A stretch of DNA of 63,393 nucleotides, filler included, from Pseudovirgaria hyperparasitica (taxonomy: Eukaryota): NCBI GenBank assembly GCA_010093815.1. It is 4 parts of 4 records of this genome, joined end to end, with 100 filler letters (N's around TTAATTAATTAA, not from the genome) between each part and the next. Parts side by side here need not be neighbours in the genome. Positions count along the whole stretch, not along the records: positions 17,995 to 48,144 come from ML996601.1; 3 more parts are not named here. One strand, 5' to 3'. Positions 20,028 through 45,107 of this stretch are shown piece after piece. Within the stretch, counting starts at the first letter, position 1. Every line of letters begins with the position of its first letter. The translations under genes were made by a program, and so were the position numbers. A model generated the notes under the pieces. It ran no database searches, was not told the DNA's origin, and saw only the letters and a list, made by a program, of their open reading frames with translations.

Positions 20028-21399
20028 NNNNNNNNNNNNNNNNNNNNNNNNNNNNNNNNNNNNNNNNNNNNNNNNNNNNNNNNNNNNNNNNNNNNNNNNN
20101 NNNNNNNNNNNNNNNNNNNNNNNNNNNNNNNNNNNNNNNNNNNNNNNNNNNNNNNNNNNNNNNNNNNNNNNNNNNNNNNNNNNNNNNNNNNNNNNNNNNN
20201 NNNNNNNNNNNNNNNNNNNNNNNNNNNNNNNNNNNNNNNNNNNNNNNNNNNNNNNNNNNNNNNNNNNNNNNNNNNNNNNNNNNNNNNNNNNNNNNNNNNN
20301 NNNNNNNNNNNNNNNNNNNNNNNNNNNNNNNNNNNNNNNNNNNNNNNNNNNNNNNNNNNNNNNNNNNNNNNNNNNNNNNNNNNNNNNNNNNNNNNNNNNN
20401 NNNNNNNNNNNNNNNNNNNNNNNNNNNNNNNNNNNNNNNNNNNNNNNNNNNNNNNNNNNNNNNNNNNNNNNNNNNNNNNNNNNNNNNNNNNNNNNNNNNN
20501 NNNNNNNNNNNNNNNNNNNNNNNNNNNNNNNNNNNNNNNNNNNNNNNNNNNNNNNNNNNNNNNNNNNNNNNNNNNNNNNNNNNNNNNNNNNNNNNNNNNN
20601 NNNNNNNNNNNNNNNNNNNNNNNNNNNNNNNNNNNNNNNNNNNNNNNNNNNNNNNNNNNNNNNNNNNNNNNNNNNNNNNNNNNNNNNNNNNNAGTATATA
20701 TACGTATAGTATAAATAAGTCTATTACTAACTTATTATCCCTAGTTATAGCTACCTTAACTAGTAGTCTATCTACCCTAACCGATACTTAAATTAAAATA
20801 AAGTTAGATAGTAGCGGACGTTTAAGTTAGGTCTTTAATCTATATATAAAGAGTATATACTTTTAAGAGAAGTCGGATATTAGTATATAACTAGAGAACT
20901 ATATAGACTACCACGAGGCCAAATAGATAATATAAGAGAGAATAAAAATAGTAACTAGAAATATAGAGGGAAGTATCTAGTAGAAGAAAAGGTTATTAAA
21001 GGTAGTTCTAGATAAGGATACCTTTTAATAGATAAAGGACACCGTCTAAAGATAGAAGAAAGGAAGGTCTACTATATTTTATTTTAGCTATATAGTCGGA
21101 GAGAGCTTAGAATAGTACTATTTAATTTAAGTTCCTAGTCTAATTAATTTTAAACCTCTACTCTCTATTATATATTATCTTTCTAGTATTAAATTTAAAG
21201 ACTATAATTAAATATACTAAAGATATAATTTAGAATAATAAGATATATAGAGTTATAGAGATACTTTAGATAAAGATATTACTTTAGAAAAGAGACTTCT
21301 ATTAAAATAGATAGAGTATATAGAATAGATAGAGTAGATAGAGTAGATAGAGAAGCTTAAATACTAGATACTATTTATTCTATAAGAGTTATTAGTATA

Positions 21400-23007
21400 T
21401 AGTAAATAAGTAGTACTAGTAAGCTAATTAGTATTAAGAAAATAACTAGTACTAATTATTCTATTAGTATAAACGGTACGTTTAGTATAAACGGGACGTT
21501 TAATATAACTAGTACGTTCGGTACTAACGAGACGTTTAGTATAACTAGTACGTTCGGTATAAATGGGACATTTAGTATAACTAGTACGTTCGGTATAAAC
21601 GGGACGTTCGATATAAGCGGGATACTTAGTATAAATTATATAAAGCCGTTCTATTAGGATAGATAGTAAGTAGATCCGCCTAATGAATACAATGGAATAA
21701 AAGAATACTTAGGGAGTACTTAGAAGTACTTGGGAGCGCCGTATCTTTCCTAATATATCTAGAACCTAAGAGAACTTATAGAGAAAGAGAGAAAGTTACT
21801 ATAGAAGTTACTATAAAGAGAACTAGATAATAGACTTAATAGAATAGAGACTAGCTTATAATAGATTTAGAAAGAGCTATTCTAAGGTAAGCGCTCTAAT
21901 ATATAGATATAGATTATAGCTATACCTAGAGCTACCGCCCTAAGGACTACTAGAATTATAGATAGAGTATATAGTATATATATTATAATCTAGAATAAAG
22001 ATACTCTTATATAGGTATAATAAGTATCCCTAAAGAAAATTGTAAATAAGATAAATAAATAGAAGAAAATATAGTTAAATATTATAGCTACTAAAGTCAC
22101 GCTAGAAGGGGTAGTACTTACTACTATAACTAATATAGTATAGTAGAGTATCTTATATAACCTAAATATAATAGATAATATCTTCCCTAGCGCGTCTATC
22201 TAGATAGCTATATATCTAATATAGATATATATAGTACTAGTATAGAGATAGACTATTAGTATAGAGAATCTCTTATATATAGAATAAGCTAATAAGTAAA
22301 AATACCTAGGGACTAAGATTACGAAGGCATAGTAGAAGAATCTATAAGAGATTAAGATAAAGACTAAAAAATACTCTACTATAATTATAGAGCTCTAGGA
22401 CCCCGCCCTTATATAACGCGTTATATAGAAGGGATTTCTTATAGAAGGTAAACTCCTTATAGTTAAACTATAGAATAGAGCGTAGATAATAATATAGTAC
22501 TTTAACTATTAAGAGTATAGCTATACTATATAATAGTACTTATAGAAGACTAAATACGGCTAGTATTACAGAGACTATACTATCTAGAAATACCCTTATA
22601 AACCGCGAGAAGATAGACTAAGAAATAAGAATATAGTATAGTATTTAAACTATAATAGAAAATATCTATTATAGTTATTAATATATACTAAATATAGATA
22701 GATTACTAAGTATATTTATATAATAAAAGTAAGAGATATAAGATAGCTATAAAATATAATATCTATTATAAACTCTTCTATTATAATAAATATAATCTTA
22801 ATCTTCTTCTAGAATAGTAATGTAGTAGAATAGTAGACTATCTCTAGAATAATAGAGAGACTAAAAGATATAGTTAAAGCTACTACTATAAGGGGATAGC
22901 TCCGCCTCTAAGAAATAAGTATATAGATATATATACTCTCTAGTATCTAATAAGGGACTATAATATACTCTAAATTATATAGATAAATATATAGTATAAA
23001 AGAGAGA
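21400..23007 (+). mobile_element. RIPped Tad1-like LINE L1, 5' part (ORF1 and start of ORF2); 5' boundary uncertain
   Basis: 21860-23007 aligns with ORF1 of L2 (23660-24786); interrupted at an 18-bp TSD. Confidence 0.75.
21464..21635 (+). repeat. 18-bp tandem repeat, ~9.5 units
   Basis: Units such as TTAGTATAAACGGGACGT / TCGGTATAAACGGGACGT / TTAGTATAACTAGTACGT. Confidence 0.85.
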
Positions 23008-26000
23008 TAAGAAAAACTTCTTATACCCTAACGGACTAAACTAGTTAATTCGGGGTAAAACAGCGATTTACATACATTAAACGATAGAGTATACTAAGTA
23101 TAATAACCTCCGACACACGTGCGTACGTATAGTATATAATACACGATAATACCGATATATAGAGATACTATATATATACGCTCGAAGACTCTTCGATAAC
23201 ATGAGCATAGACTATATCTAATAACTACTAACACGCCGACCCCCTTTTATTAGTTAAGGGCTACCCTTAACTAATAACCATGGCGGCCTTAGGTATCGTA
23301 ATACCCCGGTATACGCCGGATATACCCCTACTAGTACGGTAGAAACGGCCATATAGCGATATTAATATAGATAGCTAGACACCTATCTAAAATATAGAAA
23401 CTAACTAAGGGTGCGAAGTACTATAGATAATCTAGACTAAGGGGACCCTAAGAGGGGAGACCCTCCTAGATAAAATTAAATACTAGGTAATACGTGTAGA
23501 GAGGGACGCCGAGAAGAGAAAGAAGACCCTCCTTTATATATTCCGGGACCTTATCTAGAATCTAAGAGGAATTATAGAGGAAGAAAGGAAGTCGCTATAA
23601 GAGGAACCTAGTAGTAGGCTTAACTAAATAGAAGCTAGCCTACGGAGAATCTAGGAAGAGCTATTCTAAGGTAAGCGCTCTAATACGTAGGCTTAGATCG
23701 TAGTAATACCTAGAGCTACCGTACTAAGAACTACTAGAACCATAGATAGAGTATATAGTATACGTGTCGTAATCTAGGATAAGAACACGCTAGCGTAGGT
23801 CTAATAGGCATCCCTAAAGGAAATTATAAATAAGATTAATAAATAGAAAGGAATATAGTCGAGCGTCGTGGCTACTAAAGTTATACTAGATAGGGTAGTA
23901 CTTACTACTATAACGAATACTACGTAGTAAAACATCTCGCGAGATCCGAACGCGATAGATAGTATCTTCCCTAGCGCGTCTATTAGGGTAGCTATATACC
24001 TAATTATAGTATACATAGTACCTATGCGGGGATAGGCTATCGGAGTAGAGAATATTACGTGTATAGAATAATCTAATACACGAAAATACCTAGGGATTAA
24101 GATTATAAAAGCGTGGTAGAAGAATCTATAGGCGATTAAGTCGACGGTAAAAAAACACTCTACTATAATTATAGAGCTCCGAGACCCCGCCCTCATATAA
24201 CGTATTATATAGAAGGGATTCCTAGTAGAAGGAGAGCTCCTTATAGCCGAGCCATAGAATAGGGTATAGGTAATAATATAGTACTTTAACTATTAAGGGT
24301 ATGGATATACTATATAAAGGTACTTATAGAAGACTAAGTGCGGATAGTACTATAGGGACCACGCTATCTAGAAGTACCCTTATAAACCGCGAGGAGATAG
24401 ACTAAGAAATAGAGATATAGTATAGTATTTAAACTATAACGGGAAACACCTATCGTGGTCGTTAACGTGTATAAAATATAAATAGGTTATAGAATATATT
24501 CGCACGATAAAAGCGAGAGGCGCGAGATAGTTATAGAATATAATACCTACCATAGGCCCTTCCTTTATAATACCCCTAACCTCCCCTCCGGAAGGTAGTT
24601 AGGTAGGATAGTAGACTATCCCGAAGACGATAGGACGACTAAAAGGTATAGTTAAAGCCGCTACCGCGCGAGGATAGTCGCGCCTCTAAGGAATAAGTAT
24701 ATAGATATATATACTCCCTAGTACCTAATAAGGGACTAGAATATACTCCGAATTATATAGATAAATATATAATATAAAAGAGAGAACTAGGCGACGCTCC
24801 TCGAAGAGTCTAGGGCTATAATACTCGCTATCTAGGAACTCTATAAACACTACTAGACGAGTAAACCAACTATACACCCTAGATACTATACTATATACCC
24901 TCTAGAACTAGAAAGACGAGTCCTCTTCTACATTTATAGGTTAATACTACTCTTATTATGGTCGTATACTAAGCGCGATAACCTTAGGATAATACTACAC
25001 CTATAAATAGATATAGGCCCCCTATATATATATAATATATATAACTAATAATATATACTTATACTAGACGAGATGCTCGAGGGTACTATGGAACTAGGGT
25101 AATACATCCTCCTAGGAGACTTTAACCTCTACTACCGATGGTAGGGAGGCCTAGCCGTAGTTAGGGAAGAACTTAGAGTAAGGGAACTACGTACCCGCTA
25201 CTACGACTTTCTATACCTACTTATACCTATAGAATAAGTTATATAGAAAAAATATAAATAGAATGAAGACGGGTCTACGCTTAACCTTACCTTCGCTATA
25301 GAGTATATTAGTTACCGGATCTAATACTACCGCCTAGGCTAGGTATAGACGGATTCCGACCATAAATGCATGGAAACCGTAATAAATATATATACCCCGA
25401 ATAAATAATAGGGACGATAGATATAGAAGAACACTAACTAGGAAAAGTACCTAAAGGACCTAGAATCGGCGATCCTAGATCCCTCTATAGTTAATATATC
25501 TAACGACCTAGCCATAGACTAGGCCGTATAGATACTCCTATAAATATACTAGAATGCGAGAAATAAACACGTACTATACTAAATATACTAGCCCCCGGAA
25601 GTAAAGGGGATTCCTTAAGTACGGGAGAGTAGATAAGACGCCCGAAGGCTATATATACGCGTATACTATATAAGAATACCCGAGTCGTGGAAAGAATAGA
25701 AGGAAGCGATATAATAACGCGATAAAGTCCTCCGTAACGAAAGGCGTAAATAGTAGCATATAATTACTAGTTAATAGATATAATACGTAATAGGGCTATG
25801 GTATATAGTAAAATAGGCTAAGGGCGTAGATACTCTAATACCTTCGCCACTTATGCCTCCCCTAATATATTAGGGGAGAATATACTCCACGAGCCTTAAG
25901 AAAACTAAGGCCCTATAGAAGGCCATGTTCCCTCTCCCGGAACTAGTAGACCTATTAGACGTTCACGGCGTCGAATATCTATACGCGGTAGATATCCCCG

Positions 26001-26480
26001 AAGAAGTTACGGAGGAGGATATACTTAATATTATTAAGATACTCCTAAATAATAAAGTACCTAGACTAGATAGAATTCTAAATCGATACCTAAAAAGTAC
26101 TATAAAAGCGACCCTACCACTTATTACTTATATATTCTAAGTATACGTTACGTAGGGGTACTACCTCTAGAGCTTCCGAGTTATCTATACTATTATACTC
26201 CCGAAACTAGGAAAGAGCCCTAACTCCCTAAAGGGATAGAGACTAATTACCCTTCTCTTCTACCTAGGTAAGATACTAGAGGCTATAATAGTAAAGAAGA
26301 TAAGTACCGCGGTATAGGAATATAATCTCCTCCCTCCGAACTAGAAGGTAAAGGTAGATAGCTCTCTAATAATAGCTATCTAATATATTATTAAAGTCGT
26401 CTAGGCCGTATAGAAATAGGGACGGGTAGTATCGCTCCTCTCTCTTGATATAGCCGGAGCGTTTAATAAGGTAAACTATA

Positions 26481-29400
26481 ATAATAATAATAATATTAGT
26501 AAACTAGGTAGAGTACCACTCTATAGGCGCATACCTCCTCTAGTCTAAGCTACTATATAAGAAGAAACCTACGAATAGGAAAAACTCCCTTATATCCATA
26601 ACTACGCTCTATCTATCCTCTCGTTCTTTATATATATATAGCCCTAGAGGCTACCTATAGGTCTATAGCCTATATTATAATAGTTTACCCTTAGGTAGCA
26701 CGTATAGGTACGGAGATTATTAGTTAAGGGCTACCCTTAACTAATAATCGCGGTTCTCCCGGGGTTCTTCCGACGTATACCGGGGTTCTTCTAGTATATA
26801 TCGGGCTTCTTCCGGTATATATACGCGGGTCTACTAGAACTAGGGGAGAGGAAGGTGTACGAGCATCTATTAGGCGACGTCCTTAGGGTACTTATTAAGC
26901 TATCGCGTAATGTTAGAGGTCCTCGTCATACGTACGAGGGCTTATCTTAGGGTATAGAGGCTAGAGTACGTCGCGAGGTAGTGGCGTATTATACCTCTCC
27001 GGCCGTAGTCCTTGCACTAGGGAGATACATCTAGAACGCCTCTCTAGTAGAGGTAATATAGAGGATCTATAGCGCCTATTCGGGCTTAGAGGAGTATAGA
27101 TACTTAGGCCTTTATTAGCCCTTTATATATCTATTTACTCGGTTCCTTCTAAGGCCCTTAGATCTATTCTAGATACATATCCTATTAGGAGGCCTACTAG
27201 GCTTTAAGTACCTCCCTCTATTTATCCTAGATCCACGACCGTATAACGCGGCTAAGCTCCTTAGGGCTCTATTAGCTTAGGACGGTATCCGGGTTATTTT
27301 GAACCTCCTATATAGTCTAGCTCGAGTCCGCCTCTATATAGTATTTATATTATACTTAAGTTTATCCTATAGTAGAGAGGGTCTAGTAATGCGTGTAGAT
27401 ACGTGTGCGTAGTACGGCGAAGGTATATACTCTATCTCCTCCACGTTCTTATACTTATTATTTAGTAAAGTATATAAGTCTCTATATCTAGTAGAAGTCC
27501 TATATACTTATTACGTTTATCTCGCGTTAGAGGAGCGTTATATTAGTAGCTTTATATACACTAGAGATAAGGCGGAGTATGCGGTTTTATATAGACTTAA
27601 GCTTTACTCGCCGAGCTTATATAAGGGCCGTGTACTAGTACTCGTGTCTATATATAAAGGCTAGGCGTACTAGGGAGACGTATAGCTATCTCGCCTTATC
27701 CCGGGCTATTCTCTACGTGGATACCGTAATCCGGCGTATAGCGGTTTCTATCTAGAGGGCTCTAGAGACGGCGTGTGCCACCTATGGTCCCTATTTTAGC
27801 TTATTATTAATTATAACGCCGAGTACTCGTATACTCTATGCTAGTAGTTCTATAAAGGCGTCGATTTAGGGGCGACGTGCCCCCTCCCTAGTAGCCTATC
27901 CTCTATAGTAGTTAATAAAGTATATAAGCTAGTATTTTTTAGGTGCGAATTTTACTCCGTGGCGCTTTACCTACTAGACGCATTTCTCGTGGTCTCGTTC
28001 GAGTCGTGTATATGTTCTACTAGTACTACTATCGACCGCGAGGAGGTATATATTATCTACGTATCCGACTACCTCTATATATTCTATTCTCTAAAGGAGG
28101 TCTACTATAAAGAAGAGGAAGAGGATTAGGGAGATGGTGCTCCCTTATAGGATGCCGTATACCGTCTCCTTATATTTGCTTCGGTATCCGGGGATATATA
28201 TTTAAGTAGTCCTTTACGCGAGGAAGGACTATATAAATCGTATAATCTACTTAGGTATTCGCCTTATCCGGAGGTTATGGATAAGTCTTATATAGTTTAC
28301 CTTATTAAACGCCCCTACTATGTCTAGGGAGAGTAGCGTGACGACTCGTCCTTATTTCTATATAGTCTAGATAACCTTAAGGATGTGTTAAATGGCTATA
28401 ATTAGGGAGCTTCCTACCTTCGCCTTCTGGTTTACTAGGAGAAGGCCGTATACCTATACTACTATACTTATCTTCTTAGTAATCGTGGCTTCTAGTACCT
28501 TACTAAGGTAGGAGAGGAGGGCGATCGGCCTCCATCCCTTTAGCGTGTTTAGGCTCTTCCCTAGTTTTAGGAGTATAACTATATATACGGTTTGGAAGCT
28601 CTATGGGTGGTATCCTATACGGGCGTACGCTCGGAATATATGGCCTATAATTAGTAAGGTCGCCTATATGGTCCTCTTAAGGCATCAATTCGGAATTCCG
28701 TCTAGCCCGAGCGCTTTATCGTTCGGGAGTGTCTTAATAGCGCCGAGTATATTATCGTCCGTGATTTCCCTAGGGATACTCACGGCTTCCGGGTATTCCG
28801 TACCGTCGATATCTAATAGGTCTATAGGTTCTAGGAGAGGGAATATAACCTCTTATAGGATCTCTATTTTCTCGAGGCTCGTGGAGTATATCTTTTCTTA
28901 ATATATAAGGGGGGGTATAAGTAGTATAGGTGTCGGGGAGGCGGTGCTTTTAGCCTATTTTACTATATACTATAGTCTAGTAGTATTACGTATATATCTA
29001 TCCGTGACTATACGCTACTATTTACGTCGCTCGTTATAGAGGACCTTATCTTATTATCTTCTCGCCTCTCTCTATTTATCCTACGCTTTAGGTATACGGT
29101 TATAGTATACGCGTGTATATAATCTCCGGACTTCTCGCCTATACTCTTATACTTAAGGTATGCTTTTCGGGTCTAGGGGTCTATATATTCGGTACGGCAC
29201 GTGTTTATCTCTTACTCCCTAGTACGCCTATAGGAGTATATTTACGGCCTGGTCGATGGCCGGGCCATTAGATACGTCGACTATAGACGGGTCTAGGATT
29301 ATCGATTCCAGGTCCTTTAGGTACTTTTCCTAGTTAGTATCCTTCTATAGCTATCGCCCTCGTTAGTCTTAAGAGGTAGATACGTCTATTATGGTCTCTA

Positions 29401-31772
29401 TATATTCGTGGTCGGAGTCTATCTATATAAGGCTTAGGCGGTAGTATTAAGTCCTATTATAAATGTATCTAGTGGCTAGGGTGAGGTCGAGTATGGATCC
29501 GCCCTTATCTTATTTATGTTTTCGCTAGGTAATCTATTCTACTAGTGTAAGAAGGTATAGGAAGCCGTAGTATTAGATATATAGTTCTCTAGCTCGAAGC
29601 TCTTCGCGGGTGACGGTTAGTCTACCCTACTAGCTATAATAGAGGTTAAAGTCTCCTAGGAGGATGTATTATCCTAGCTCGGTAGTGCCCTTAAGCATGT
29701 TATCCGCCTAAAGTGATCGGTTCTAATTATATATGTTATGTATATAGAGGGGTCCGATATTCGTCTAGAGGTGTAGTATTATCCGGAGGTTATCCCGTTT
29801 AGTATATAACTATAATAAGAGTGGAATAGACTTATAGATATAGAAGAGGACTCTCCTCTCCGGTCCTGGGGGGTGTATTATATAATATTCTAGGTGTGTT
29901 ATTAGTTTGTTCGTCTGGTAGTATTTATATAGCTCCTGTATAGTAAGTATTATAGCTCCGGTCTCCTCGAGGAGTATCGCCTAGTTCTTATGTTTATACT
30001 ATACGTTTATCTATATAATTAGGAGTATATCTTAGTCTCTTATTAGGTACTAGGGAATATATAGGCCTATATATTTATTCCTCTAAGACGCGACTATCCT
30101 CGTACGGCGGCGGCCTTAGTAATTCCTTAGGGCCGTTCTATTATTAGCTTTCTTAGGATGGTTTACTATTTCTAACCGCTTCCTCGTAAGGAGGTAGTCT
30201 ATAGTAGTAGTATTATAGTAAAGAGAGGAACGGTGGTAGGTCGTATCGTTTATAGCTACTTTACTCCCTTTATCCGGATTAAGTAGATGTATTCGGTGAT
30301 CTATTTACGTTTCGCGCACGTAGCTAACTACGACAGGTGCTTACCGTCGTAGTTAGAGTACTTCGCCGTGTCCCTATCTCTCTAGCCCTCTCCTCGTGTT
30401 CCGTAGGGGCACTCCTAGGTACTATATTCTTATTAATACTATCTATACCTAGTCTTTTAGAAGTACTGCTATACCGTGTACCCGTATCCCTAATAGTTAA
30501 AGTACTATGTTATCGCCTATGCTCTATTCTATGGTTTCGCTATAAGAAGCTCCCCTTTCGCTAGGAATCCCTCTTACGTAATTTAATACGCGAGGGCGGG
30601 GTCCTTAAGCTCTACTATTATAGTAGAGTATACCTTCGATCTAGTTTTAATCCCTTATATATTCTTCTACCATGCTCTTATAATCTTAATCTCTAGGTAT
30701 TTTCGCTCGTTTAACTATTCTATCCGCGTAATGTTCTCTTCTCTAATAACCTATCCGCTTACGGGTATAGAGTATATCTATATCGGGTATATAGCCGCCC
30801 TAATGGAGGCGCCTAGAAAGATACTACTAATCGCGTTCGGATCGCGTAAGATAGTCTACTACGCGATGTTCGTTATCGTGGTAAGTACTACTCCTCCTAG
30901 TATAAGTTTAGTAGTAATAATATTTAACTATATTTCCTTTTATTTATTAATCTTACTTACTATATCCTTTAAGGATACTTGCTAGACCTATACTAGGGTA
31001 TCCTTATCCTAGATTACGACGCGTATACTATACGCCGCGTCGCCGGTCCGGGGGGCCCGTAGTATAGCCTCCGGTATTACTACTATTTATACCTATATAC
31101 TAGGGCGCTTACCTTAAGTAAGTTCCTCCTAGATTCTACGTAGGCTAGCCTCTATTCGGTCGAGCCTACCCTCCGGTCCTCCTAGTTATATCTTCTTCTC
31201 CTTCTCTATAATTCCCTTTAGATTCTAGATAAGGTCCTAGAATATATATAGGAGGGTCTTCTAGCCCTCTCCGGCTTCCTTCTCTATACGTGCTACCTAG
31301 TAGTCGATACGATCTAGGAGGGTTTCCACTCTCGGGGTCCCCTTTATTCCGTCTATCTATAGTAGTATACGCCTTTAGGTGTGTTCTACGTTTTAGATAG
31401 ATATATAGTTACCCTTAGTAATGTTACTATATAGCCTTTTCTATCGTACCGGTAGGGGTATATCTAGTATATACTAGGGTATGTCGGTGCCTAAGGCCGC
31501 CATATTTATTAGTTAAGGGCTACCCTTAACTAATAAAAGGGAGTCGGCGTATCGGCGTTCTAGTAGCGTGGTCCGTGCCTCTATCTCCGTAAGGATTTTA
31601 AGAGGGTATATATATATCTTTATACGGCGATAACGTCTTGGTTTCGACGCTACACGTACGTGCGTATAGTAGTAGTTGGTGTACTTAGTATACTCTATCG
31701 ATTAAGGTGTGTATCTCGCTATATTACCCCGAATGGACCAAGTTAGCCTCTTAGGGATGTAAAAGAAGTTTC
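26481..31772 (-). mobile_element. RIPped full-length Tad1-like LINE L3 inserted in the RT of L2
   Basis: TSD A(T/C)AAGGTAAACTATA at 26466-26480 and 31773-31787; (ATA)n tail at 26481; ORF1 start at 31503; RT GYVDN near 28060. Confidence 0.92.
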
Positions 31773-33018
31773 ACAAGGTAAACTATATAAGACTTATTTA
31801 TAACCTCTAGATAAGACGAATACTAGAATAGATTATACGCTTTATATAGTTATTCCTTATAGGAAGAATAACTTAGATATATATCCCTAGGTACTAGAGC
31901 GAATATAAAGAGACGGTATACGGCATCCTATAAGGGAGTACTATCTCTCTAATTCTATTCCTCTTCTTTATAATAGACCTTCTTTAAGAAATAAAGTATA
32001 TAGAGATAGTTAGATACGCCGATAATATATACCTCCTAGCTATTAATAATAATACTAACCGAACGTATAGATGACTAGAATAGGACTACGAGAGGTACCT
32101 CTAGTAGATAAAATACTACGGAGTAAAGTTCGCCCCGGATAAATACTAGCTTATATACTTCATTAATTATTAAGGGAAATAGATAACTAGAGAAGATAAA
32201 TAACGCCCCCGAATCGATATATTTAACGAACTACTAGTATAAAGTATACGCGCGCTCGGAGTTATACTAGATAGTAAGCTTAAATAGGGACTATAAGTGG
32301 TATACGCCGTCTCTAGAGCCCTCCGGGTAGAAGCCGCTATATAATAGATTATAGTCTCTATATAGGGAACCGCCTAGGATAAGGCACGCTAGCTATATAT
32401 ATCTATAGTACGACCCGCCTTTACATATGGACACGAGTACTAGTATACGGCCCTTATATAGACTAGGCGAATAAAGCTCGAATCCATATAGAACCGTATA
32501 CTTCGTCTTATATTAGACGTATATAAAGCTACTAACACGGTACTACTACGACGCGAGATAGACGTTATAAGTATATATAACTTCTACTAGATATAGAGGG
32601 TAGTATACTTTACTAAATAATAAGTATAGGAACGCATAGAAAACGTAGAATATACTTTCGCCGCGCTACGTGTATAAATTAGTATATATTACCGCGTACT
32701 CCTATATATAGACCGGAATCGAATACGGTATAGGTGCTTAATAGAAGCCGACTCTAGCTAAGTAGTATAAGAAGTCTAAGATAACCTAGACGCTCTCCTA
32801 GACTAGTAGAGCCTTTAAGAACTTATAAAAAATATACGGTTATGGACTTAAGATAAGTAGAAAGAGATACTCCGTGCCTACTAGATCTCCTAGTAGAATA
32901 GGTACCTAGAGTAGATTTAAGGGCCATAGAAGGAACCGAGTAAATAGATGTATAAAGGGCTAACGAAAGCCTAAGTATCTATACTTATCTAAGCCCGAAC
33001 GGGCGCTATAGGACTCCT

Positions 33019-33256
33019 TATAAAGAGTAAAGACGTGGGATAGTAGTCTAACAGTTCATAGAGAGACATAGGAATGTATTTGTAGAGTAATCTCACTCTT
33101 ATACAAGGTTGATTCCTAACGAGCAGGAATCGGTTTATACGGTCTACTTATATAGTGACCTCGCTTAACTTAGCTAACTTAACCCAGCTCTAGCCACTAC
33201 GTGGCTGCATGGATTAGAATAGTCCATATAGGTCCGTTATAGTTCCCGTCCTAATA
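33019..33256 (-). repeat. 3' LTR of the Gypsy element
   Basis: Direct repeat of 40825-41062 differing by transitions. Confidence 0.93.
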
Positions 33257-33735
33257 ATATCCTTCTTCTTTTTATGCTTCGCCCTAAAGCACTTAAGTAT
33301 ATATAATCCTAAGTCTCTATAATCCATCGTGTACCTATATATCCGTGACTAAGTTCCTATAACGTTATAACCATCCTTAATATAGGTGAACTCGAGATTC
33401 TAGTTTACTTTTATTAGTTCATGCACGCGCTTATCCCTTACTTCGTGGCTACTACCTAGGACATATAATTACTACTTTGGTCGAGTATATATTTAGCTTC
33501 GCTCGCCTTTGATTTTATTCTCTAGTATATCCACCTCGCTCTTAAGGTAAGTCGTTAATTCATATACTATCTTCCCTAGTTCAGGTTCAGAAGGGTCTAT
33601 AGTGGTCTATTCTTATTAGAACCGGTCCTATATAACCCATTCGCGTTATTATAGTTACTAATTTAGCTTCGTTAATCGCCGTTAAGGGTAGACGAATATT
33701 CCTTCCTTAGATCTCTAGCTAATATATGTATATAG

Positions 33736-35142
33736 ATATCTAATACTAGTCCTATCTCTAAGCCTACCTTCTCCTCTTATAAGACTCGCTCTAAAGGTAT
33801 CGCCTCCTCCCCGGCCACGCCGGCTAAGAAGCCTACCTATCGCGGTAGTATAAAGGCGCGCTCTAAGTCGGAGAAGAGAGTAGCTAGGGCTACTACTACT
33901 ACTACCTCTACCACTAATATGGCTACTAGTCGCTCTAATCTAGGTAATCCTAGTACTAAACTTATAGATGAAGTGGTCGTAGGTTCTCCTCTCGCTCTAA
34001 AGCGCACGCCGCCTACTCTATCTCCTCTAGAGGATAAAGAAGATCTCGTTATAGACGATGATCGCGAGCCCTCGCGCTTACCCACGCCGCCGTCTCGCCG
34101 CTCTTCCTTCCGGTCTAATATGGACCGATTTAGTCGCTCTAGGTCCTTTTAGGACCTTAATATTTACTCTAAACCCTAGCCTACTAATAATAAGGCCTAG
34201 GTTACCGAGGATACTAAACGTAGTCGCGGTTTACGCCATAGGAAAACGGCGAACTACGGTTTAATATACTATGAGTATATTAAGGGCCATGCGGCCGGCT
34301 CTAAATATCTCTTTCGCTCTAACTCTAACATTAGCTACTACTCTACTAACCGCGACGGGCCTATACGCCCTATCTTTACTCTACCTACCCGCTACCGCCG
34401 CTATGCCGTGACTAGTAAGACTTGTCTATAGGTGAGTATAATGGGCTGTCTTAATCTAGTATAATCCAAAGTAGTCCGCGCTAATATATTCTTAGGTTCC
34501 TATACGTATATAAAATATATATAACGACCTTCGCGTCCGCGAGACCCTCGGGGGTCCTTATAGCCGCCTACCTACTATATAGAGGGAGTTTAGGGAGCGC
34601 TATAAGCTCTTCCTAGAGGTTATTAAAGTATAAGTTATAAGCACGTTAATTGTTTTTAACACCTGTTGATTTTTCTAGCCGCCGTGAGATCCCTAGCGCC
34701 TAGACTACCTATTCTAGGGAGTCTATCCTAGCCATAGAGGCCGTAGAGAGGATTCGCTCTATCCCCCCCCCGTCCGTCTCGCGCTACTAACGGATCTCGC
34801 AAGAGGTCTACTGTTTCTCCCTCTAAGTCGCCTCGTAAGAGGGTATATATTCCCTTCTAGCTTATTCTAGATCGTATTAGCTAACTTTAGACCTAGTCGC
34901 TGCGCTCCGGCGCTTAAGGCTCTTCCCTCTAGGCTCTAACGGATCGGGTTATTACTCTAGAGGCTAAGGTCGTCGTCCTCCGCCGCCATATCGTGTAGTT
35001 AGAAAGAACTATACTAGAGATTAGGACGGATAATAAGATAGAGGAGTAGCTCTATGGTTCTAGCTCTATATATTAGCTCTATGCCTAGCTCTATATGTTC
35101 TAGATCTACTATAGATGGTGCGCGCCGGCTCTATTTACCTAG
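33736..35142 (+). pseudogene. RIPped antisense, intron-containing extra gene inside the Gypsy element
   Basis: Long frame broken mainly by TAG/TAA; GTGAGT...GCTAAT...TAG intron 34432-34495 and a probable second intron ~34630-34678; Y/C pattern compatible with CxxC...CxxCx6C; C-terminal heptad-like segment. Confidence 0.6.
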
Positions 35143-38100
35143 CTTTTATCCATTTTAGTCCTTTTTAGACCGTTTAGATACCCGTCGGCTAGTTTCTAGT
35201 AATTTAATTCTTAACTTAACGATATTATATGTGCGCTCGCTTAGCTTATAACTATCGGTTTCTACATTCTGATTTTCCTTAAGTCACCTAAGTATAGGCA
35301 CCGCATATAAATTAGTTTATCTCTATGAATTCCATTAGAGTACCCGAACTAGTGGCCTAGTGGTTATTAGTTCGGGTACTCTAACCTTTTATATTTCGTG
35401 TTAAGAGTTTAATTCTATGGTGGGGTACCTTTTTTTAGGTTCTTGGTCCTATGTTTTTCTCGTGTATAATGGTCCATGTTAGTCTATTCTAGACTCTTCT
35501 ATGTTGTTCTATTATGGTATATCGCGTCGCGTTCCTAAAATGGTTATTTACGCTTTCTTCGCGTCTAGTAACCGTACGATACTTGAATTATAGGGCTACT
35601 ATATAGAGTTTTCCTAGTGCGCGTCTAGATTTCCTAGTTTGGCACTTCATTCTCTGCGGTATCCTTCTTCTTTTTACGACGACCGCGATGTCGCTATACT
35701 TACATTAATAATGCGCTATTCTATATCTTTTACTTATACGCAGCCATTATAGAACTTAAGATATATACCGCTGGTTCCTAGGTATCCTCGTCCTTAGTGT
35801 AGTCCTTCTAATAGATTCTATATTTCTAAATACCGTCTTCATCGATTCTATATTCGATAATATAGTCTACTTCGAACACGTCTAGTCCATCTTAGGGTAT
35901 AATAGAGTGTAACTATACGTTCGTACGGCCATACACGTTAGATCGAAATCTTTCGAGTAGTAAGACGTGGAACACGTTATGGATTCTTATATCGCTTTCT
36001 AAGTCGAGCTCGTAGGCTCTTATACCGATACGACGTTTAATTCGGAAGGGACTAGCTATTTTATAATCGAGCTTCTTATTTACTCGCGACGTTCGTATGT
36101 TACGGACGTTAAGAAGGACCTCGTCGCCCTCCTCGTACGTCTAATTCTTGGCTAACCTATTATAGTACTTCGTATACGAGTCGTTTACTTATTAGATTAT
36201 AGCGCGATAGTTACGTGCGGTTTCGAAGATTTTAATTGCCAATTCCTGAGCGTGGACGTTCACGTCTATTATTCGATTAAATTAGACCGTCTAAGGCTCA
36301 AAACCTATCCTTAGACTACGTCCGAGGTTCGCCTAGAAAGGTATAATACCTATTATACTATAACGACTATTATTATATACGAACTCTACTATACTTAGTA
36401 GGGAGGCCTAGTCGTCCTACTTAAAATTATAGAATGCGCGTAGGTAGGCCTCGAGCGTCTAGTTCTATCGCTCTATCTAGCTATCCGTCTAAGGATAAAA
36501 TGCTATAGATATGTTTCTATTTATACTTGCCATTTCGTAGAATAACGTCTAGAATTTAGACGTGAAGGTACTTCCTCGGTCCGTAACGATCCTTTTTGGT
36601 ATACTATGGACCTTAATAATCTCGTTCTAGAATACCTACGCTAGTTCTTTAGATATAGTCGTCTTCCACACCGGGATATACCTAGATATCTTTATAAGTC
36701 TATCTACGATAATAAGAATAGAATTATAACTTATTCTAAGTATCTCGCTTAGAGGTAAGTTAACTATAAAGTCTATAGTAACGTCTTCCTATATAAAGAG
36801 GGGGGCTAAAAGAGACTATAAATTCCTATATAGCTTGTGCCTAGGGGCCTTCGTTCTTTGATAAATCGGATAAGTAGCTATCCATTCTTCGATATACTTA
36901 GGCATATCTTTCTAAAAATAGTACTAATGAATTAAGCTTAGGGTACGTACATACCTAAAGTGTCCTACTAGGTTAGCGTCATGGTATCGGCTAACTACGT
37001 TAAATCGCGTGTTACCCGTCGGTATATAGTACTTTCTATTATAGTAAAGTAAGCCGTCCACGAAGGTCCACTTATAGTCTACTTTAGTCTATAATAACCT
37101 ATCTTACTATATTTTACGTAACTTTAAAACTATTAGGTCTATCTTCTATAGATCCACGATTAACTAGGCGAGGTTAATTAGATATTCACGCCGGGTATTA
37201 TCGCCCTTCCCGACAGCGCCAATAAACGGTCTACTAGGGACTTTAGTACCGCGTCTTTGGTTACCGGCTTCGGTCTTAGAGATTTGATTACTAGCATCGA
37301 CGTTAGTATCTCGCTAATCGCCTAATAACTTAAAATCTAACCTCGTCCTTAAGAGTTGGGCCTATAGCTACTCTAGGACCCTATGGCCACTATAATCCTA
37401 GGCGCCTTCTTTATAGTTAGGTCTTCTTAATATTCTATTAGCTAGGTTTATACTTCTAGGTCGATAGTAGATTATAAAGTGAAAGTTCGTAAGCTACTTA
37501 GCCTATTAGACCTATCGACGGTTTAAAACCGTCGTACTTATAAACCCCTTTAAGTTATAGTAATTAGTTAGTAACTTGACGTTATATATAGTACCTTTAA
37601 GATAATATCGCCACTATTTAAACGACTCTACTATTACTAGTAGCTCTTGGTCATAGATAGTATATCTAGTCTTAACATTAACTATTTTGCGTGAGAAGAA
37701 CGCAACTAGATACTATTAGACCTTTTTAGACTTAGTTGGTCTAGGCTAGGAGAGAATGCCTAAGATTATAAATCCTAACGCGTCGGTTTCGACGCGGATA
37801 GGTTTGGTTAGGTCGAAGTATACTAGTAATAGGGTAGTTATAAATGCCTCTTTAATTTTCTCGAAGGAGGCCCTTTCGCCTTCCGATAATTCTATAGGCT
37901 GCGATTTAATATTACGCTGTTTCTGTCTACCGTGGACCGTAATAGACGAATCTATAGTAGTAGTACGCGCGTTAAGCGGTGCTACTAGCCGGGAGAAATG
38001 CTTAACGAATTTTCGGTAGTAATTGGCGAATCTAATAAAGACACGTATGTCTCGAACCGATTTTGGTTCAGGCCAGTCCATGATAGTAGCGACCCTATCC

Positions 38101-40824
38101 CTTTCTATAGTTATACCTTAATTAGTAATAACGAAGCTAAGAAAGTTAACGTAGTCCTAGTAGAACTCGCATTTAGATAGCTTAATATATAGCTTATGTT
38201 TTTCTAGCCTATCTAGGACTACGTGTACGTGCTAGATGTGTTCTTCTTCGTTATTAGAGAAGATAAGGATGTTATCGAGGTATACGATGCACGTCGTGTC
38301 GAGTAGGCCTACTAGCGCGTTATTAATGTACGCTTAGAAGGTTCCTAGCGCGTTAGTTAGTCTAAAAGGGACTACTATATACTTAAAGTATCTATAACGG
38401 GTCCTAAACGCCGTTTTCTACTCATCGCCCTTCTTAATATATAGGCGGTAGTAGACGTCGCGTAGATTGAGCTTGGTAAAGATCTTCGCGCGCCCTAGTC
38501 TATTAATAGACTCGGAGATAAGAGGTAGTAGGTAACGATTCTTTCGCGTAATGTTATTTAGGCTACGGTAGTCGATATATAGACGGAGACTCCTATCCTT
38601 CTTCTTTATAAAGAGGATTGGAGCTCCGGCTAGGGATATACTAGGCCTAATCTATCCTCGCGTAAGGTTCTTTTCAATGTATTCTTAGAGGACCTATAGC
38701 TCGGGTTCTAATAGAGGGTAGATAGGTCCGTATGGGGGTTATTAACCGTCTTCAAGGTTAATAGTAAGGTCGGTAGGTTGGTATTAAGGTAATTCGGACG
38801 AGTCGATCGCTAACGCGATATATTAGTATATTTTATACTAATATAGTAGGTTTTCGTCTACTTTGATACTAAGCTCTCTATTTTAAGTAAGTAAGAGGAC
38901 GTAGATGGCGGAGATTACCTTTTCGTAGTCCTTCTGGAATTATTCATCGTCGACTAGCTGTACTAGGTTCTATTATGGTGGGTACATGCGCTAGCCAGCT
39001 GTTTTCTAGATGAAGTCCAGTTTCGGGTTATATTTTTCAAGCTACGGTATACTAAGGATCATGTCGAAGGGACTATCTACTACAATGAAGGTTAAGTAGT
39101 AGGGTTTCTACTTCCCCCTACTATCCTAGATGCCGTATTTAATGGTGTAGGTACCCTACGATTTAATAGGACCGTCGATGCCATGGAAGGTAGCACCTAT
39201 TAGTACTTAAATATCGACGTTAAGTTCTCGTGCTCGTTAAGTCGATATAACGTTAGTAGCTGAACCGCTATTAAGTATTGCGGTCTAATGTTATCTATAA
39301 GGGACCTTAATAGGCCTAGCCTATAGTTCGATATACTAGTTAGCTAGTTATCCCTCTATTTCGGTTACGTCTATAAGTCGCGAGGGTTCCTCGTAGGTAG
39401 TTAGTTTTTTATATCGTATACCGGGTAGTTAGGCGCGATGTGTCCTAGCTACTAGCACTTATAGTATATAACTAACTTAGTATCTATGTTAGTATTCGGT
39501 AGTTTCCCTAAGCGGTACTCGGGTGCTATATGGTCTATCCTACCATAGGTATAGTAGGTGACTTTAGGTCGTTTATACGAGTCGTTTCTTACGTCTCGAT
39601 ATATCGACTAGTGGAAAGATCCGCGGTACGGGCCTCGTCTTCTCGAGTTCATAGAGTAGTAGCGCCCACGAGGTGTTCCGCGCGATCTATTACTAAACCG
39701 GTCCTCTTTAGACGATTTTACATTAGATTAGATTAATAGGGATAGTCGTGCGCCTATACGACGTTAGTTATTCATTATACGCTAATGTCGTTCTACGAGA
39801 TTCGCGAGTACCTAAAGGTCGGTAGAGATAGACGTTATAAGGTCGATGCGTTCCTTTACGCTCGGGTTAAGGGACCTTTTAAAGTCGTCGTATTATTAAA
39901 CCATACGATCTTCCTCGGCTTCTCTCTAAAGAGGTCGGAGGTATTCGAGGAGTTATAACGGGGATTATCTCTCTCGCTGTTAAGTCTTAAAGATATGGCT
40001 CTAAGCCTATTCGCGTCGCTCGGCTCTATCGCCGAAGTATTAAAGAAGGAATTCGGTGAACGTGTCCTAGTTATACGCATCCTTAGGGTGTTTAATTCGA
40101 TGTGCTATCCAACGTTCAGATGGCGTTAGGTCTAGGTAGTTCTATACGAACCTAATCTTATTACTATCATTCGTGAATAGGTGGAAGAATCGGCTATACT
40201 AGTAAGCCTATTCGTGAAAGCTCCTCCTGGTTTTACCGTCGAAGTAAGGTGGTTTCTTAGGCCAAGGTAACTAGGATAGTAATAGACTTGGTTGGACTGT
40301 TTCGGCTTAAGTTAATCCATATTAGTGTAGATTAGTTGCTACTAGCACTAAAGCGCGTAGTGCGGCTTCGAGTCTAGCGGTTCGTCCTCGCGCTTTATCG
40401 AGTTCGCGAAGTTACTACTCGAGCTAAGCCTAACGCTACCTCTCCGCGTGTAGCTTAGTATATACGTTATCGTGAGGCGTGGTTAACGTTAGTCTATTCT
40501 AACGAATTAATTTATTAACGTTAATAGGGTCTAGTCTTATAGTAAGGATAGGTCTAGTATAGTATAAACTAGACCGCGATAGAGTATGATGGACTCCTTC
40601 CTTATTATCTAGGTAATCTTCTACGGTTATACGGAATGCTATACTAGTTATTAGTGCGATAGTCTATAGGGTATACTTATTGGTGGAGGTGGTCGTAGGG
40701 AGACTATTCTCTTCGTTTAGATTTAGAGAGAGTCTCTCGTGTAAGGTAGTGCCACGGGTATTATAGCGCGTAGTAGGAGCTATCTCTATAAGCTACCGTC
40801 GTGCTATATAGAGAGGAATCAAAA

Positions 40825-41062
40825 TATAAAGAGTAAAGACATAGGATAGTAGTCTAATAGTTTATAGAGAGACATAGGAATGTATTTATAGAGTAATCTT
40901 ACTCTTATACGAGGTTAATTCCTAACGAGTAGGAATTGGTTTATACGGTCTACTTATATAGTAACCTCGCTTAACTTAGCTAACTTAACCTAGCTCTAGC
41001 CACTACGTGGCTACATGGATTAGAATAGTCCATATAGGTCCGTTATGGTTCCCGTCCTAATA
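40825..41062 (-). repeat. 5' LTR of the Gypsy element
   Basis: Direct repeat of 33019-33256, upstream of gag on the minus strand. Confidence 0.93.
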
Positions 41063-41663
41063 CTTCTATACTATATCTATAAGAGAGGCGTTCCCGATAC
41101 CTCCCTATAGTATAAGGCGTATAGCCGAAGAGGTATAATACGCTACTATCTAGCTATATACTCTAACCTCTATATATAATAGTAATAGCTTATCTACGTT
41201 ATAAAGACTTTAGATATTATATAATAGCTTAATAAGTACCCTAAGGACGTCTCCCGATAGATACTTATATATCTACTACTCCTCTAGTACTAGTAGACCC
41301 GGAAATATATACTGGAAGAGACCCGGTATACGCCGGTAGTAACCCGATATATACTAGAAGAACCCCGGGAGAACCCCGATTATTAGTTAAGGGTAGCCCT
41401 TAACTAATAACCTCCATATCTATACGTGCTACCTAAGGGTAAAATAATAGTAATATAGGCTATAGGCTAATAGGCGTACCCTATAGCTATATACTTAAGA
41501 CGAAATAGAGGTTTAACGAGATGTAGTTATAGATATAAGGAAGTTTTTCTCTATAGGGTTTCTTCTTATATAGTAGCTTAGACTAGAGAAGGCATAGGCC
41601 TATAGAGTACTACTCTACCTAGTTATATAATAATATTATTATTATTATAGTATAAAAGAGAGA

Positions 41664-44600
41664 ACTAGGCGATACTCCTTAAAGAAACTAGAGCTATAAT
41701 ACTTACTATCTAGAAGCTATATAAGTACTACTAAACTAATAAGCTAATAATATATCTAGAATACTATACTATCTACTCTACGAGCCCGGATAGAAGAGTA
41801 ATATTTTATATATATAAGTTAATTCTACTCTTGAAATAGTTCTATACTAAATATAATAATCTCTAGATAATATTATATCTCTAGATAAGTATAGAACCCC
41901 TTTATATCTATAATATATATAACTAATAATAATTACTTATATTAGATAATATACTTAAGAATACTATAATACTAGAATAATATATCCTTCTAGATAACTT
42001 TAATCTCTACTATAGATAGTAGAAAGGCCCTACTATTATTAGAGAGGAACTTAGAGTAAGGGAGCTATATATATATAATACTAGAACTTTCTATATCTTC
42101 TTATATCTATATAATAGATTACGTAGAGAAGATATAAATAGAATATAGATAGGTCTATTATTAACCTTATACTTACTACTAACTATATAAGCTATAGAGT
42201 ATAATACTACTACCTAAGCCTAATATAGATAGACTCTAACTATAAATATATAGAGACTATAATAGATATCTCTACTCTTAATAACTAATAAGGAAAGTAG
42301 ATATAAAGGGTACTAACTAGGATAACTATCTAGAGAATCTAGAATCGGTAATTCTAGATACCTCTATAGTTAATATATCTAATAGCCCTACTATTAATAA
42401 AGCCGTATAAACTCTCCTTTAAGTATACTAGAATATAAGAGATAAATATATACTATACTAACTATATAGATCTCTAGACGCGAGGGGTATACCTTAAGTA
42501 TAAGAATATAAAAGAGAGGCCCGTAGACTATATATATACGTATATATACTATATCTAGATAACTAAGGTATAGAATAAGTAGAAAGAGGTAGTATAATAT
42601 CGTAACTAAACCCTCCTTAATAAATAATATAAATAATAGTATATAATTACTAGTAAGTATATATAATAAACCATAGAGCTATAGTATATAGCTAAGTAGA
42701 CTAAGAGCGCTAATACCCCGGTACTACTACTAATACCTTCTCTAATATACTAAGGAAGAATATACTCTATAAGCTAGGAGAAGGTAGAGATTCTATAAGA
42801 TATTATATTCCCTCTTCTAGAACTAGTAGATCTATCTAATATTAAAGGCGCTAAGTATCTAGATATAATAGATATTTTCTAGGAGATTACTAAAGAGGAT
42901 ATACTTAATACCGTTAAAGCGCTCTCTAATAATAAGGTATCTAGGCCAGATAGAATACTAAATAGGTATCTTAAATATACTATACGGGTAACTATACCGC
43001 TTATTAGTCTTATCTTCTAGATATATACTAAGAATAGATACTACTTCTAAAGCTTCTAAGCTATCTATATAGTTATACTTCTAAAACTAGAGAAGGATTC
43101 TAGCTCCCTAAAAGACTAGAGACTAATTACCCTTCTCTTCTATCTTAGAAAGATACTAGAAGCTATAATTATAAAGAAGATAAATATTATAGTATAGATA
43201 TATAGTCTTCTTCTAGTAAACTAGAAGACGAAGACTAGAAGCTCCCTAATTACCACTATCTAATATATTCTTAAAGTTATCTAGACTATATAGAAATAGG
43301 GACGTATAGTAATACTACTCTCCCTTAATATAGCTAGTATATTTAATAAGATAAACTATACTAGACTTATCTATAATCTATAGAGGAGATATATACTAGA
43401 GTAGATTATATAGTTTATATAGTCCTTTCTTACTAAAAGGGTTACCTAGATATATATCCCTAGATATCATAGTAAATATAAAAAAACGTTATATAGTATC
43501 CCTTAAGGAAGTACTATCTCTCTAATTCTCTTTCTCTTCTTTACTATAGACCTTCTCTAGAGAATATAATATATAGAGACTATAGAGTACGTAGATAATA
43601 TATATCTTCTTACTATTAATAATAATACTAGCTAGATATATAGGCGTCTTAAATAGAACTATAAGAGATATATCTAATAGGTATAGCGCTATAGAGTAAA
43701 GTTCGTATCTAAAAAGTACTAGCTTATATACTTTATTAACTACTAAGGGAAATAGGCTACTAAGGAGGGTAAGTAATATTCTAGAATAGACGCCTTTAAT
43801 AAATCTCTAATACTAAATATACGTATACTTAGTATTATAATTAAGAATAAACTTAGATAGAGTCTATAGATAATATACGCCGTTTCTAGGGCCCTCTAGA
43901 TAGAAGCCGCTATATACTAGATTACGGTCTCTATATAGAGAACCACCTAGAATAAGGCGCGCTAGCTATATATCTCTATAGTATAACTAGTCTTTATATA
44001 TAGATACAAGTACTAGTATATAGCTCTTATATAGCCTAGGTAAATAAAACTTAAGTCTATATAGAACTATATACTCTACCTTATCTCTAGGGCATATAAA
44101 GCTACTAATATAATATTATTATAACGCGAAATAAATATAGCTAGTATATAGAACTTCTACTAAATATAGAGGGTAGTATACTTTACTAAATAATAAGTAT
44201 AGGAACGAGACGGGGATACTAAATATACCTTTACTATACTATACACGTGTATTTATATATACTACTAGGTACTCTAATATACCGGCCGGACTTAGATATA
44301 ATATATATACTTAATAGAAGTAGACTTAGAATAGATAGTATAAGAGATTAGAGATAACCTAGATACTATTCTAGGCTAGTAGAGCCCTTAGAAACTTAAA
44401 TAGAGTATATAGATATAGACCCGGGATAAGTAGAAAGAGGCGCTCTAAGTCTACTAGACCTTCTAGTAGAAGAGATACCTAGAGTAGATTAGAGGGCTAT
44501 AGAAGGAACTAAGTAAATAGATATATAAAGGGCTTATAAAAGCCTAAGTATCTATACTCCTCTAAGCCCGAACGAAGACTATAGAACTTCTATACTACCT

Positions 44601-45107
44601 CTATAAGAGAGGCGTCCCTAGTATATCTCTATAGTATAAAGTATATAGCTAGAGAGATATAGTACGCTACTATTTAGCTATATACCCCGACCTTTATATA
44701 TAGAGATAATAGCTTACCTATACGACTAGAACCTCTAATATTATATAATAGCTAAATAAGTACTCTAAGAAAGTCTTATAATAGATACTTATATGTCTAC
44801 TACTCCTCTAGTTCTAATAGATCTAGAAATATATACTAGAGGAGGCCTATTATATATTAGAAGACATCTAATATATACTAGAAGAACCCTAGAAGAACTC
44901 TAATTATTAGTTAAGGGTAGCCCTTAACTAATAACCTCCGTATCTATATCTATATATACTATCTAAGGGTAAAATAATAGTAATATAGGCTATAGACTAA
45001 TAGGTTTACCCTATAGCTATATACTTATAATAAAATAAAGGTTTAATAGAATATAATTATTAGAATAAGGAAGTTTTTCCCTAAGGGTTTCTTTCTATAT
45101 AGTAGTA
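41664..45107 (+). mobile_element. RIPped LINE L1, 3' part (ORF2 APE-RT and 3' UTR, tail missing)
   Basis: Resumes exactly after the TSD; colinear with ORF2 of L2/L3; hairpin at 44904-44934. Confidence 0.88.

Follow-up and report, generated by a model that had tools for sequence, protein, structure and literature searches.

By analyzing a 63,393-nt stretch of DNA from Pseudovirgaria hyperparasitica (assembly GCA_010093815.1; hereafter the window), we found that a Ty3/gypsy chromovirus, degraded by repeat-induced point mutation (RIP), carries the remains of an additional gene between pol and its 3' long terminal repeat (LTR). We are confident that this segment was an ancestral four-exon open reading frame (ORF), antisense to gag-pol and inherited with the element. 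Taken as a whole, the explanation that we favor, and judge probable, is that the segment represents the RIP-inactivated remnant of an accessory gene of this fungal chromovirus lineage, the product of which was a regulator. The copy found in this genome is dead, with 13 internal stop codons and five of its six Cys codons changed.

The antisense frame and its exons

The chromovirus lies on the minus strand and spans 8,044 bp (33019-41062). Since its pol ends around 35660, extra DNA of about 2.4 kb is left before the 3' LTR (33257 to ~35650), close to the 2.3 kb estimated in an initial annotation made from the sequence alone, whose picture of the element is correct. On the plus strand of this DNA, positions 33736-34431 (exon 1, 232 codons) are clearly a former ORF. 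First, the frame contains four stops, all TAG, compared to 18.9 ± 4.5 in dinucleotide shuffles, and none of 2000 shuffles of 33736-34431 had four stops or fewer in any frame, while the remaining five frames hold 9 to 46 stops. Second, triplet periodicity reaches its maximum for the whole element in exon 1 (chi2 45.8, p 3e-8, versus at most 30.6 in pol), and this signal stops near 34430. Third, exon 1 has 1.7 stops per 100 codons versus 1-8 per 100 in the reverse transcriptase-integrase part of pol from the same copy, and it is thus better preserved than pol. The frame begins at ATA, possibly a former ATG, encodes a sequence rich in Ser, Thr, Pro and Arg, and has a cysteine module at its end.

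Together with the DNA downstream, exon 1 can be read as a four-exon model of 376 codons, in frame throughout, with intron phases 0-2-0. The model contains 14 stops including the terminal one, 12 TAG and 2 TAA, as anticipated from the RIP-type stops noticed initially. Intron 1 (34432-34495, 64 nt, phase 0, GTGAGT...GCTAAT...TAG) starts right after ...TCL(TAG) at the 34431/34432 junction. This canonical intron had been proposed from the sequence alone, and we consider it supported because its position is conserved in relatives, two of which (L001 and L078, see below) share both position and phase. Exon 2 (34496-34629) is in frame with exon 1 and is followed by intron 2 (34630-34703, phase 2; acceptor at 34703 or 34688), the donor of which, ATAAGT at 34630, is the exact product of a RIP change TpG to TpA in GTAAGT. 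Exon 3 (34704-34842) comprises a basic stretch and ends with ...SKSPRKR, immediately before the GTATAT that opens intron 3 at 34842/34843 (34843-34890, 48 nt, phase 0, GTATAT...GCTAAC...TTTAG, with branch site and acceptor at 34880-34890). Finally, exon 4 (34891-35049) encodes a heptad-like, coiled-coil-like tail and ends with a terminal TAG. The initial annotation had assumed a single intron and had read the SPRKR stretch and the heptad-like tail in one continuous frame. Read that way, the tail shows no stop depletion, its 123 codons including 11 stops (P=0.83), 3 of which fall within intron 3. The stretch and the tail were recovered with two more introns, the phases of which match those of the relatives; the gene therefore requires three introns.

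Then, we compared the window with contigs from two DNA runs, both made on one sample. These contigs reach every one of the 30 bins of 33019-40824. Single variant letters in the segment (34273 and 34328) were carried by 24-30 contigs, and those in pol by 27-37. Given that many contigs carry variants of the segment, as they do for pol, many copies of the segment exist. Two joints were each supported by a single contig, one going from the LTR end to 35184 and the other from 35185, plus three letters, to the LTR start; we read them as another copy of the element inserted at 35184-35188 with a 5-bp duplication rather than as a form lacking the segment. No internal LTR or target-site duplication (TSD) flanking the segment was found, so that a separate insertion with its own TSD is not what we see. 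These multi-copy contigs, together with the presence of a gene at the same place in three relatives, indicate that the gene is integral to the element, as first suggested. The same contigs also revealed that a run of C at 34763-34772, inside exon 3, differs in length by one base in a minority of them (3 and 2 in the two runs), a change that would shift the frame of exon 3.

Pol relatives and the cysteine module

From an alignment of ten Pol relatives we obtained 77 metagenome loci and five IMG/VR loci. The pol genes most similar to that of the window were those of L001, L002 and L006 (~40% identity) and of L078 (40.5%). In a FastTree pol tree, the window formed one clade with L002, L001 and L078 (Shimodaira-Hasegawa (SH) support 97), with L003, L005 and L006 as the sister group. 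All three members of the window clade harbor an antisense Cys-rich ORF downstream of pol, and the window gene likewise sits antisense between pol and the 3' LTR. The L001 ORF, with nine Cys, was modeled as four exons separated by introns of 49, 72 and 58 nt (phases 0-2-0), giving 296 codons without any internal stop. The L078 gene, found on a circularly permuted contig whose ends overlap by 123 nt, also has four exons with phases 0-2-0, and its exon 1 matches that of L001 with E=4.6e-13. In both genes exon 1 ends two codons past the last Cys (C-L-A|GTAAGT in L001 and C-F-A|GTATGT in L078) and intron 3 follows SPAKR (L001) or TPSKK (L078), each directly before GTAAGT, while the last exons are helical and charged, with a length near that of window exon 4. 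The window shares these junction motifs and phases, that is intron 1 after C-[LF]-x and intron 3 after [ST]-P-x-K-[KR]. The ORF of L002 had no relative among the loci, and none of the three ORFs had a Pfam match, including Zn_clus to E=10. Using L001 exons in tblastn, we found no match at L003 and L006, which are shorter (6.2 kb), and a 15-residue match with E=2 at L005. A second scan of IMG/VR with an alignment of the module recovered the L078 contig alone.

L001, L078 and L002 share six invariant Cys, arranged as C-x2-C, C, C-x2-C-x6-C. To align the window with these genes, its codons were scored by the residues possible before CpA-to-TpA changes (RIP-aware alignment). The six invariant positions then correspond to Y, Y, Y, Y, Y and C in a putative Cys6 zinc module at 34267-34425 on the plus strand, which now reads Y..Y, Y, YY, Y..Y......C; five of these six positions hence depend on TAY being a former TGY. 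All eight Cys of L078 aligned to Y or C of the window. Against L001 exon 1, the Cys region of the window scored 68, compared to 45.8 ± 7.5 for shuffles, of which 8 in 1000 scored as high. A [CY] pattern modeled on L078 matched once when the window was read in six frames (126,782 codons), namely at 34267 and without stops, a weaker test than it appears given that the pattern ranges were chosen after both sequences had been seen. As a control, we looked at pol. The five columns with Cys in at least nine of the ten relatives read Y, C, C, Y and Y in the window, and stops have replaced Trp in 12 of the 16 columns where it is conserved and Gln in 9 of 13. In the gag knuckle, a translation read by eye has Tyr in place of residues expected in C-x2-C-x4-H-x4-C. 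Because three of the five conserved pol Cys also read Y, the Y, Y, Y, Y, Y, C series fits RIP, which supports the original proposal that TAY codons stand for former TGY. Among the 40 listed of 526 variant positions in contigs of the DNA runs, none was at a Tyr codon.

The initial annotation had also compared the module with a Zn2Cys6 half-site. The last three residues indeed have half-site spacing, but the full PF00172 spacing (C-x2-C-x6-C-x5-12-C-x2-C-x6-8-C) is absent from the window, where the two module loops span ~19 and ~17 residues (14-16 and 21-32 in the relatives). Searching Pfam with the window exons gave no Zn_clus match to E=10, although RIP changes from Cys to Tyr would mask one.

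Antisense genes with the canonical spacing were found in other elements. Across the 77 loci (605 kb, read in six frames), the full Zn2Cys6 regular expression matched four times, namely in L014, L022, L057 and L072, all four matches being antisense to pol and ~0.4-1.2 kb past its end. In L038, L048, L050, L067, L060, L069, L077 and L021, a GTAAGT/GTGAGT intron separates the two half-sites, a few codons past the third Cys, while L009, L016, L027 and L035 have longer first loops. Loci were eligible when they reached the C-terminal end of pol and extended for 1 kb or more beyond it; of these 35, 15 contain C-x2-C-x6-C, uninterrupted by stops, in a frame antisense to pol within 2 kb. The density of this motif per 10 kb is 4.0 antisense downstream of pol, versus 0.46 in sense orientation and 1.1-1.2 antisense elsewhere. 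Nearly all elements with the canonical motif group in a separate pol clade of 25 members (SH 100), 15 of which have it. After the cluster, ORFs of this canonical clade encode a basic stretch of the SPRGGEKRKR type, then a long helix and finally an acidic tail. In an AlphaFold2 (AF2) model of the L014 product, the helix (100-152) has block-mean predicted local distance difference test (pLDDT) values of 85-95, for an overall mean of 64. With this model Foldseek found no match at E<=0.001; five of the six best weak hits were the DNA-binding domains of Pho7, Leu3 and Gal4 (E 3-5). Pfam Zn_clus stayed below threshold in four of ten ORFs tested (14.6-17 bits versus a cut-off of 21). A profile built from seven canonical-clade ORFs retrieved only designed coiled coils in a sequence search of the PDB, and at least 627 proteins with E<=0.001 out of 8000 candidates that were scored; the 120 listed are all unnamed, Pfam-less and metagenome-derived. 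Examples of canonical-clade ORFs are L014:3650-4228(-), L057:12324-12725(-), L072:5240-5908(-) and L038:9467-10018(-). A common origin of the two types of antisense genes is unproven.

Three sense ORFs downstream of pol were also observed among the loci. Two are rich in Cys and His, lie just past pol and are unrelated to the antisense genes (L055:13251-14216(+), 321 aa, and L032:10296-10589(+)), and the third encodes 929 aa on a circularly permuted 8.3-kb contig (L020:5388-8177(+)).

The chromovirus and its surroundings

The element is bordered by a 5-bp TSD, the left copy of which (CTCCT, 33014-33018) is one transition apart from the right one (CTTCT, 41063-41067). Its 3' LTR (33019-33256, minus strand) and 5' LTR (40825-41062, minus strand) are direct repeats of 238 nt with 94.1% identity. 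Next to the 3' LTR, a region that is purine-rich on the minus strand (33257-33285) may be the polypurine tract. Gag-pol (35664-40823, minus strand), with RIP stops throughout, was recognized by Pfam matches and by ~41% identity to chromodomain-bearing Pol proteins. A single minus-strand frame comprises RVT_1 (8.9e-23, aa 739-898), RT_RNaseH_2 (3.4e-17), Integrase_H2C2 (1.8e-9, aa 1272-1326) and SH3_Tf2-1 (9.3e-15, aa 1566-1626), so that Pol has the order reverse transcriptase, RNase H (aa 981-1114, identified by two Pfam models) and integrase. Pfam Chromo had no match at E<=0.01 in this RIP-damaged copy; a chromodomain-like stretch is readable past SH3_Tf2-1, and PF00385 is present in nearly all of the 120 Pol relatives listed (best identity 41%). 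RIP indices are extreme around the element, with TA/AT of 1.4-2.1 and (CA+TG)/(AC+GT) of 0.2-0.55.

The window as a whole is made of GC-normal blocks alternating with AT-rich blocks. A second RIP-degraded repeat surrounds the chromovirus (21756-33018 and 41062-45105), with several copies in both orientations that are 67-80% identical to each other. Since this second repeat runs uninterrupted across the insertion site in another copy (43342-45105), the 8,044-bp element was inserted into it.

Several other features were noticed. In the DNA that separates the antisense gene from pol, an inverted repeat (35335-35384) has perfectly matching 17-bp arms around a 16-nt loop, which is odd amid heavy RIP mutation; tRNA and Rfam searches of the segment returned no match. 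A short tandem-like AGCTCTAT... repeat (35059-35114) varies in copy number among contigs of the DNA runs (joints 35082/35083/35114 to 35059). Farther away, a long array of an 8-bp unit (20004-21400 and 17887-18003; 183 registered copies) lies in a block with 9% GC, and a 398-nt inverted duplicate with 95.7% identity links 48346-48743 and 6436-6833, 41 kb apart in GC-normal DNA.

The gene product, its alternatives and known systems

If the four-exon model is right, the gene would start ~480 nt inside the 3' LTR and run towards pol, opposite to gag-pol. Since the genomic RNA contains its introns in antisense, and therefore offers no splice signals, they would be kept through retrotransposition. 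The ancestral product would have ~375 residues, with a disordered basic Ser/Thr/Pro-rich N-terminus followed by the six-Cys module, a basic SPxK[KR] motif and a C-terminal coiled-coil-like helix. Transcription may have started from an antisense promoter in or beside the 3' LTR, and the product might have been a zinc-binding, nuclear and dimeric protein able to bind nucleic acids, which could have controlled the LTR promoter of the element itself or host loci. That this product was a DNA-binding regulator is a tentative proposal, which in our opinion could fall either way.

Several observations weigh against the reading of the segment as a remnant of a regulator gene. The window ORF had no homologue by word-index search, nor by phmmer against 1.84 billion representatives, and neither its exons (to E=10) nor the three plus frames of 33257-35600 matched a Pfam family. 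Comparing the segment with the 77 related loci by tblastn and tblastx gave no match either, and the seven-ORF canonical profile had negative hmmsearch scores on the six-frame window and on the exons. Between the L001-type and the canonical-type profiles, hhalign reached E=0.27 over 15 columns covering the last half-site only. RIP-aware alignment was not significant for L078 exon 1 (181 of 2000 shuffles scored as high), for L002 or for exons 2-4. The ORF frame has one [CY]-x2-[CY]-x6-[CY] half-site (34393-34425) and a second one downstream was not found, while the AF2 model of the L001-type module has a pLDDT of 46.6 and is unusable. Regarding the exons, exons 2-4 are not supported statistically when taken by themselves (for exon 2 alone, 2 stops in 45 codons, P=0.24), the ambiguous acceptor of intron 2, for which the candidates were enumerated, makes this intron the weakest part of the model, and loosely defined intron-like patterns are not rare, given five distinct candidate donors on the plus strand across the 8 kb of the element. 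Moreover, the window branch is long in the pol tree, the relatives are drawn from metagenome and IMG/VR contigs, and the antisense gene is known here from DNA.

Some other candidates were set aside. Hamartin, the sole Pfam hit of the window exons (E=3.5), was taken as noise. The L016 ORF, best of 27 other related-locus ORFs with z=3.4, probably reflects basic low complexity and was not counted as significant after 27 tests. The 'LILDR' and 'SPR' likeness seen in a MAFFT alignment was dropped given the negative scores of the canonical-clade profile on the window. Lastly, a RIP-tolerant 59-nt pattern from 34373-34431, verified on the window, had no match in metagenome contigs.

Alternatively, a real and element-borne gene may have encoded something other than a DNA-binding regulator of transcription, with a Cys module that binds RNA or protein. 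Such a product could be a nucleic-acid chaperone, a packaging or localization factor or an antagonist of host silencing, or the antisense transcript itself could be active. This would agree with the lack of a detected DNA-binding family in the ORFs of the window, L001, L078 and L002, with a spacing unlike Zn2Cys6, with the long, disordered and basic N-terminus, and with the first half of the module, which can be read, with Y taken as C, as C-x2-C-x3-H-x5-C, near a CCHC knuckle. However, the last three Cys keep a C-x-R-C-x6-C that aligns, although not significantly, with the canonical second half-site. By analogy, the order of Cys module, basic stretch and coiled coil also parallels that of the canonical-clade genes, one of which gave the weak fold matches to Pho7, Leu3 and Gal4. 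We regard a non-regulatory product as rather unlikely.

Recent capture of a host gene or gene fragment by one element family, without any role in the element, is improbable in our view. As shown by its introns, the gene was not copied by way of a sense RNA, and tblastn with L001 exons places the gene outside the sister group L003, L005 and L006; yet the same structure, position, orientation and phases are found in elements only ~40% identical in Pol, and no cellular homologue came out of the 1.84 billion representatives. The host origin raised in the initial annotation is therefore doubtful as a recent event, whereas an ancient capture is compatible with the explanation that we favor. The last alternative, a chance open frame in a GC-richer low-complexity stretch or an unrelated nested insertion, could invoke other fairly open frames (9-12 stops, and a 103-codon open run on the minus strand), chance intron-like patterns and the unsupported exons 2-4, but it is highly improbable given the shuffles, a periodicity exceeding that of pol, the Cys pattern and splice positions common to relatives, and a segment without LTRs or TSD around it, the odd joints at 35184/35185 fitting the nested insertion of another copy.

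Returning to the remnant of an element-borne regulator gene, a broader proposal is that at least two deep clades of fungal chromoviruses carry a spliced antisense gene for their own zinc-Cys DNA-binding dimer, which would drive or tune the LTR or host genes; we see this as possible rather than probable. If true, the protein of one clade, with its acidic activation tail, would be a miniature Gal4, the layout would be comparable to that of HBZ, and hundreds of unnamed metagenome proteins would fall in this class of accessory genes. The common view of LTR retrotransposons is that of gag-pol machines. Starting from a dead copy, we were led to intact relatives and to a multi-exon antisense six-Cys gene stably inherited within a chromovirus lineage, and a second lineage has, in the corresponding location, genes for canonical Zn2Cys6 and coiled-coil proteins. 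DNA binding by these proteins would mean that fungal retrotransposons come with transcription factors of their own, which would bear on how elements escape or exploit host control and on the rewiring of nearby genes in compartments rich in transposable elements. For annotators, this is a reason to keep 'hypothetical' ORFs found inside gypsy elements.

How does the window gene compare with known systems? With Zn(2)-Cys(6) factors (PF00172; Gal4 1d66, Leu3 2er8, Pho7 6o19) it shares six Cys, the last three as C-x2-C-x6-C, a basic linker and a coiled-coil-like helix. In contrast, its loops between Cys 2-3 and Cys 3-4 and those of its relatives have 14-19 and 17-32 residues, instead of 6 and 5-12 in PF00172. 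The canonical-clade genes are similar in being antisense, 0.4-1.3 kb downstream of pol, with a Cys module, a basic stretch and a long helix, and several of them have an intron a few codons past C-x2-C-x6-C. Whether unspliced (L014, L057, L072) or split (L038, L048, L060), they differ from the window gene by their canonical spacing, their acidic tail and their separate clade. HBZ of human T-cell leukemia virus type 1 (HTLV-1), a vertebrate retrovirus, is a basic leucine zipper (bZIP) protein and a dimerizing nuclear factor encoded by a spliced antisense gene beside the 3' LTR; the likeness with the window gene is one of layout only.

In the literature searched, which left subscription journals mostly outside, we found no paper on a Zn2Cys6-type antisense gene of a chromovirus, and the terms 'antisense', 'binuclear' and 'additional ORF' are absent from the text of Muszewska et al. 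2011. Extra frames besides gag-pol, often located between pol and the 3' LTR as is the window gene, have been described as the 'add. ORF' of fungal chromoviruses, with a function not known (Novikova et al. 2010, PMC2864245), and as additional ORFs (aORFs) of plant LTR retrotransposons (review PMC7264820); the passages on the fungal add. ORF do not mention antisense orientation, introns or a Cys module. The closest published precedent is brtn, an additional antisense gene of the Boty-like Ty3/gypsy elements of Botrytis cinerea (Zhao et al. 2011, Virology 417:248, as described in PMC8365987, PMC4227169 and PMC5987419). These citing descriptions, on which our comparison is based, mention neither cysteines nor introns, and brtn, an additional ORF or zinc does not appear in the supplement of PMC8365987. 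If BRTN is within the library of 1.84 billion representatives, the window ORF did not match it. One family of fungal gypsy elements was already known to have an extra antisense gene: like the window element, that of brtn is a fungal gypsy element with such a gene besides gag-pol, and it bears a chromodomain, for which the window copy has a readable candidate stretch.

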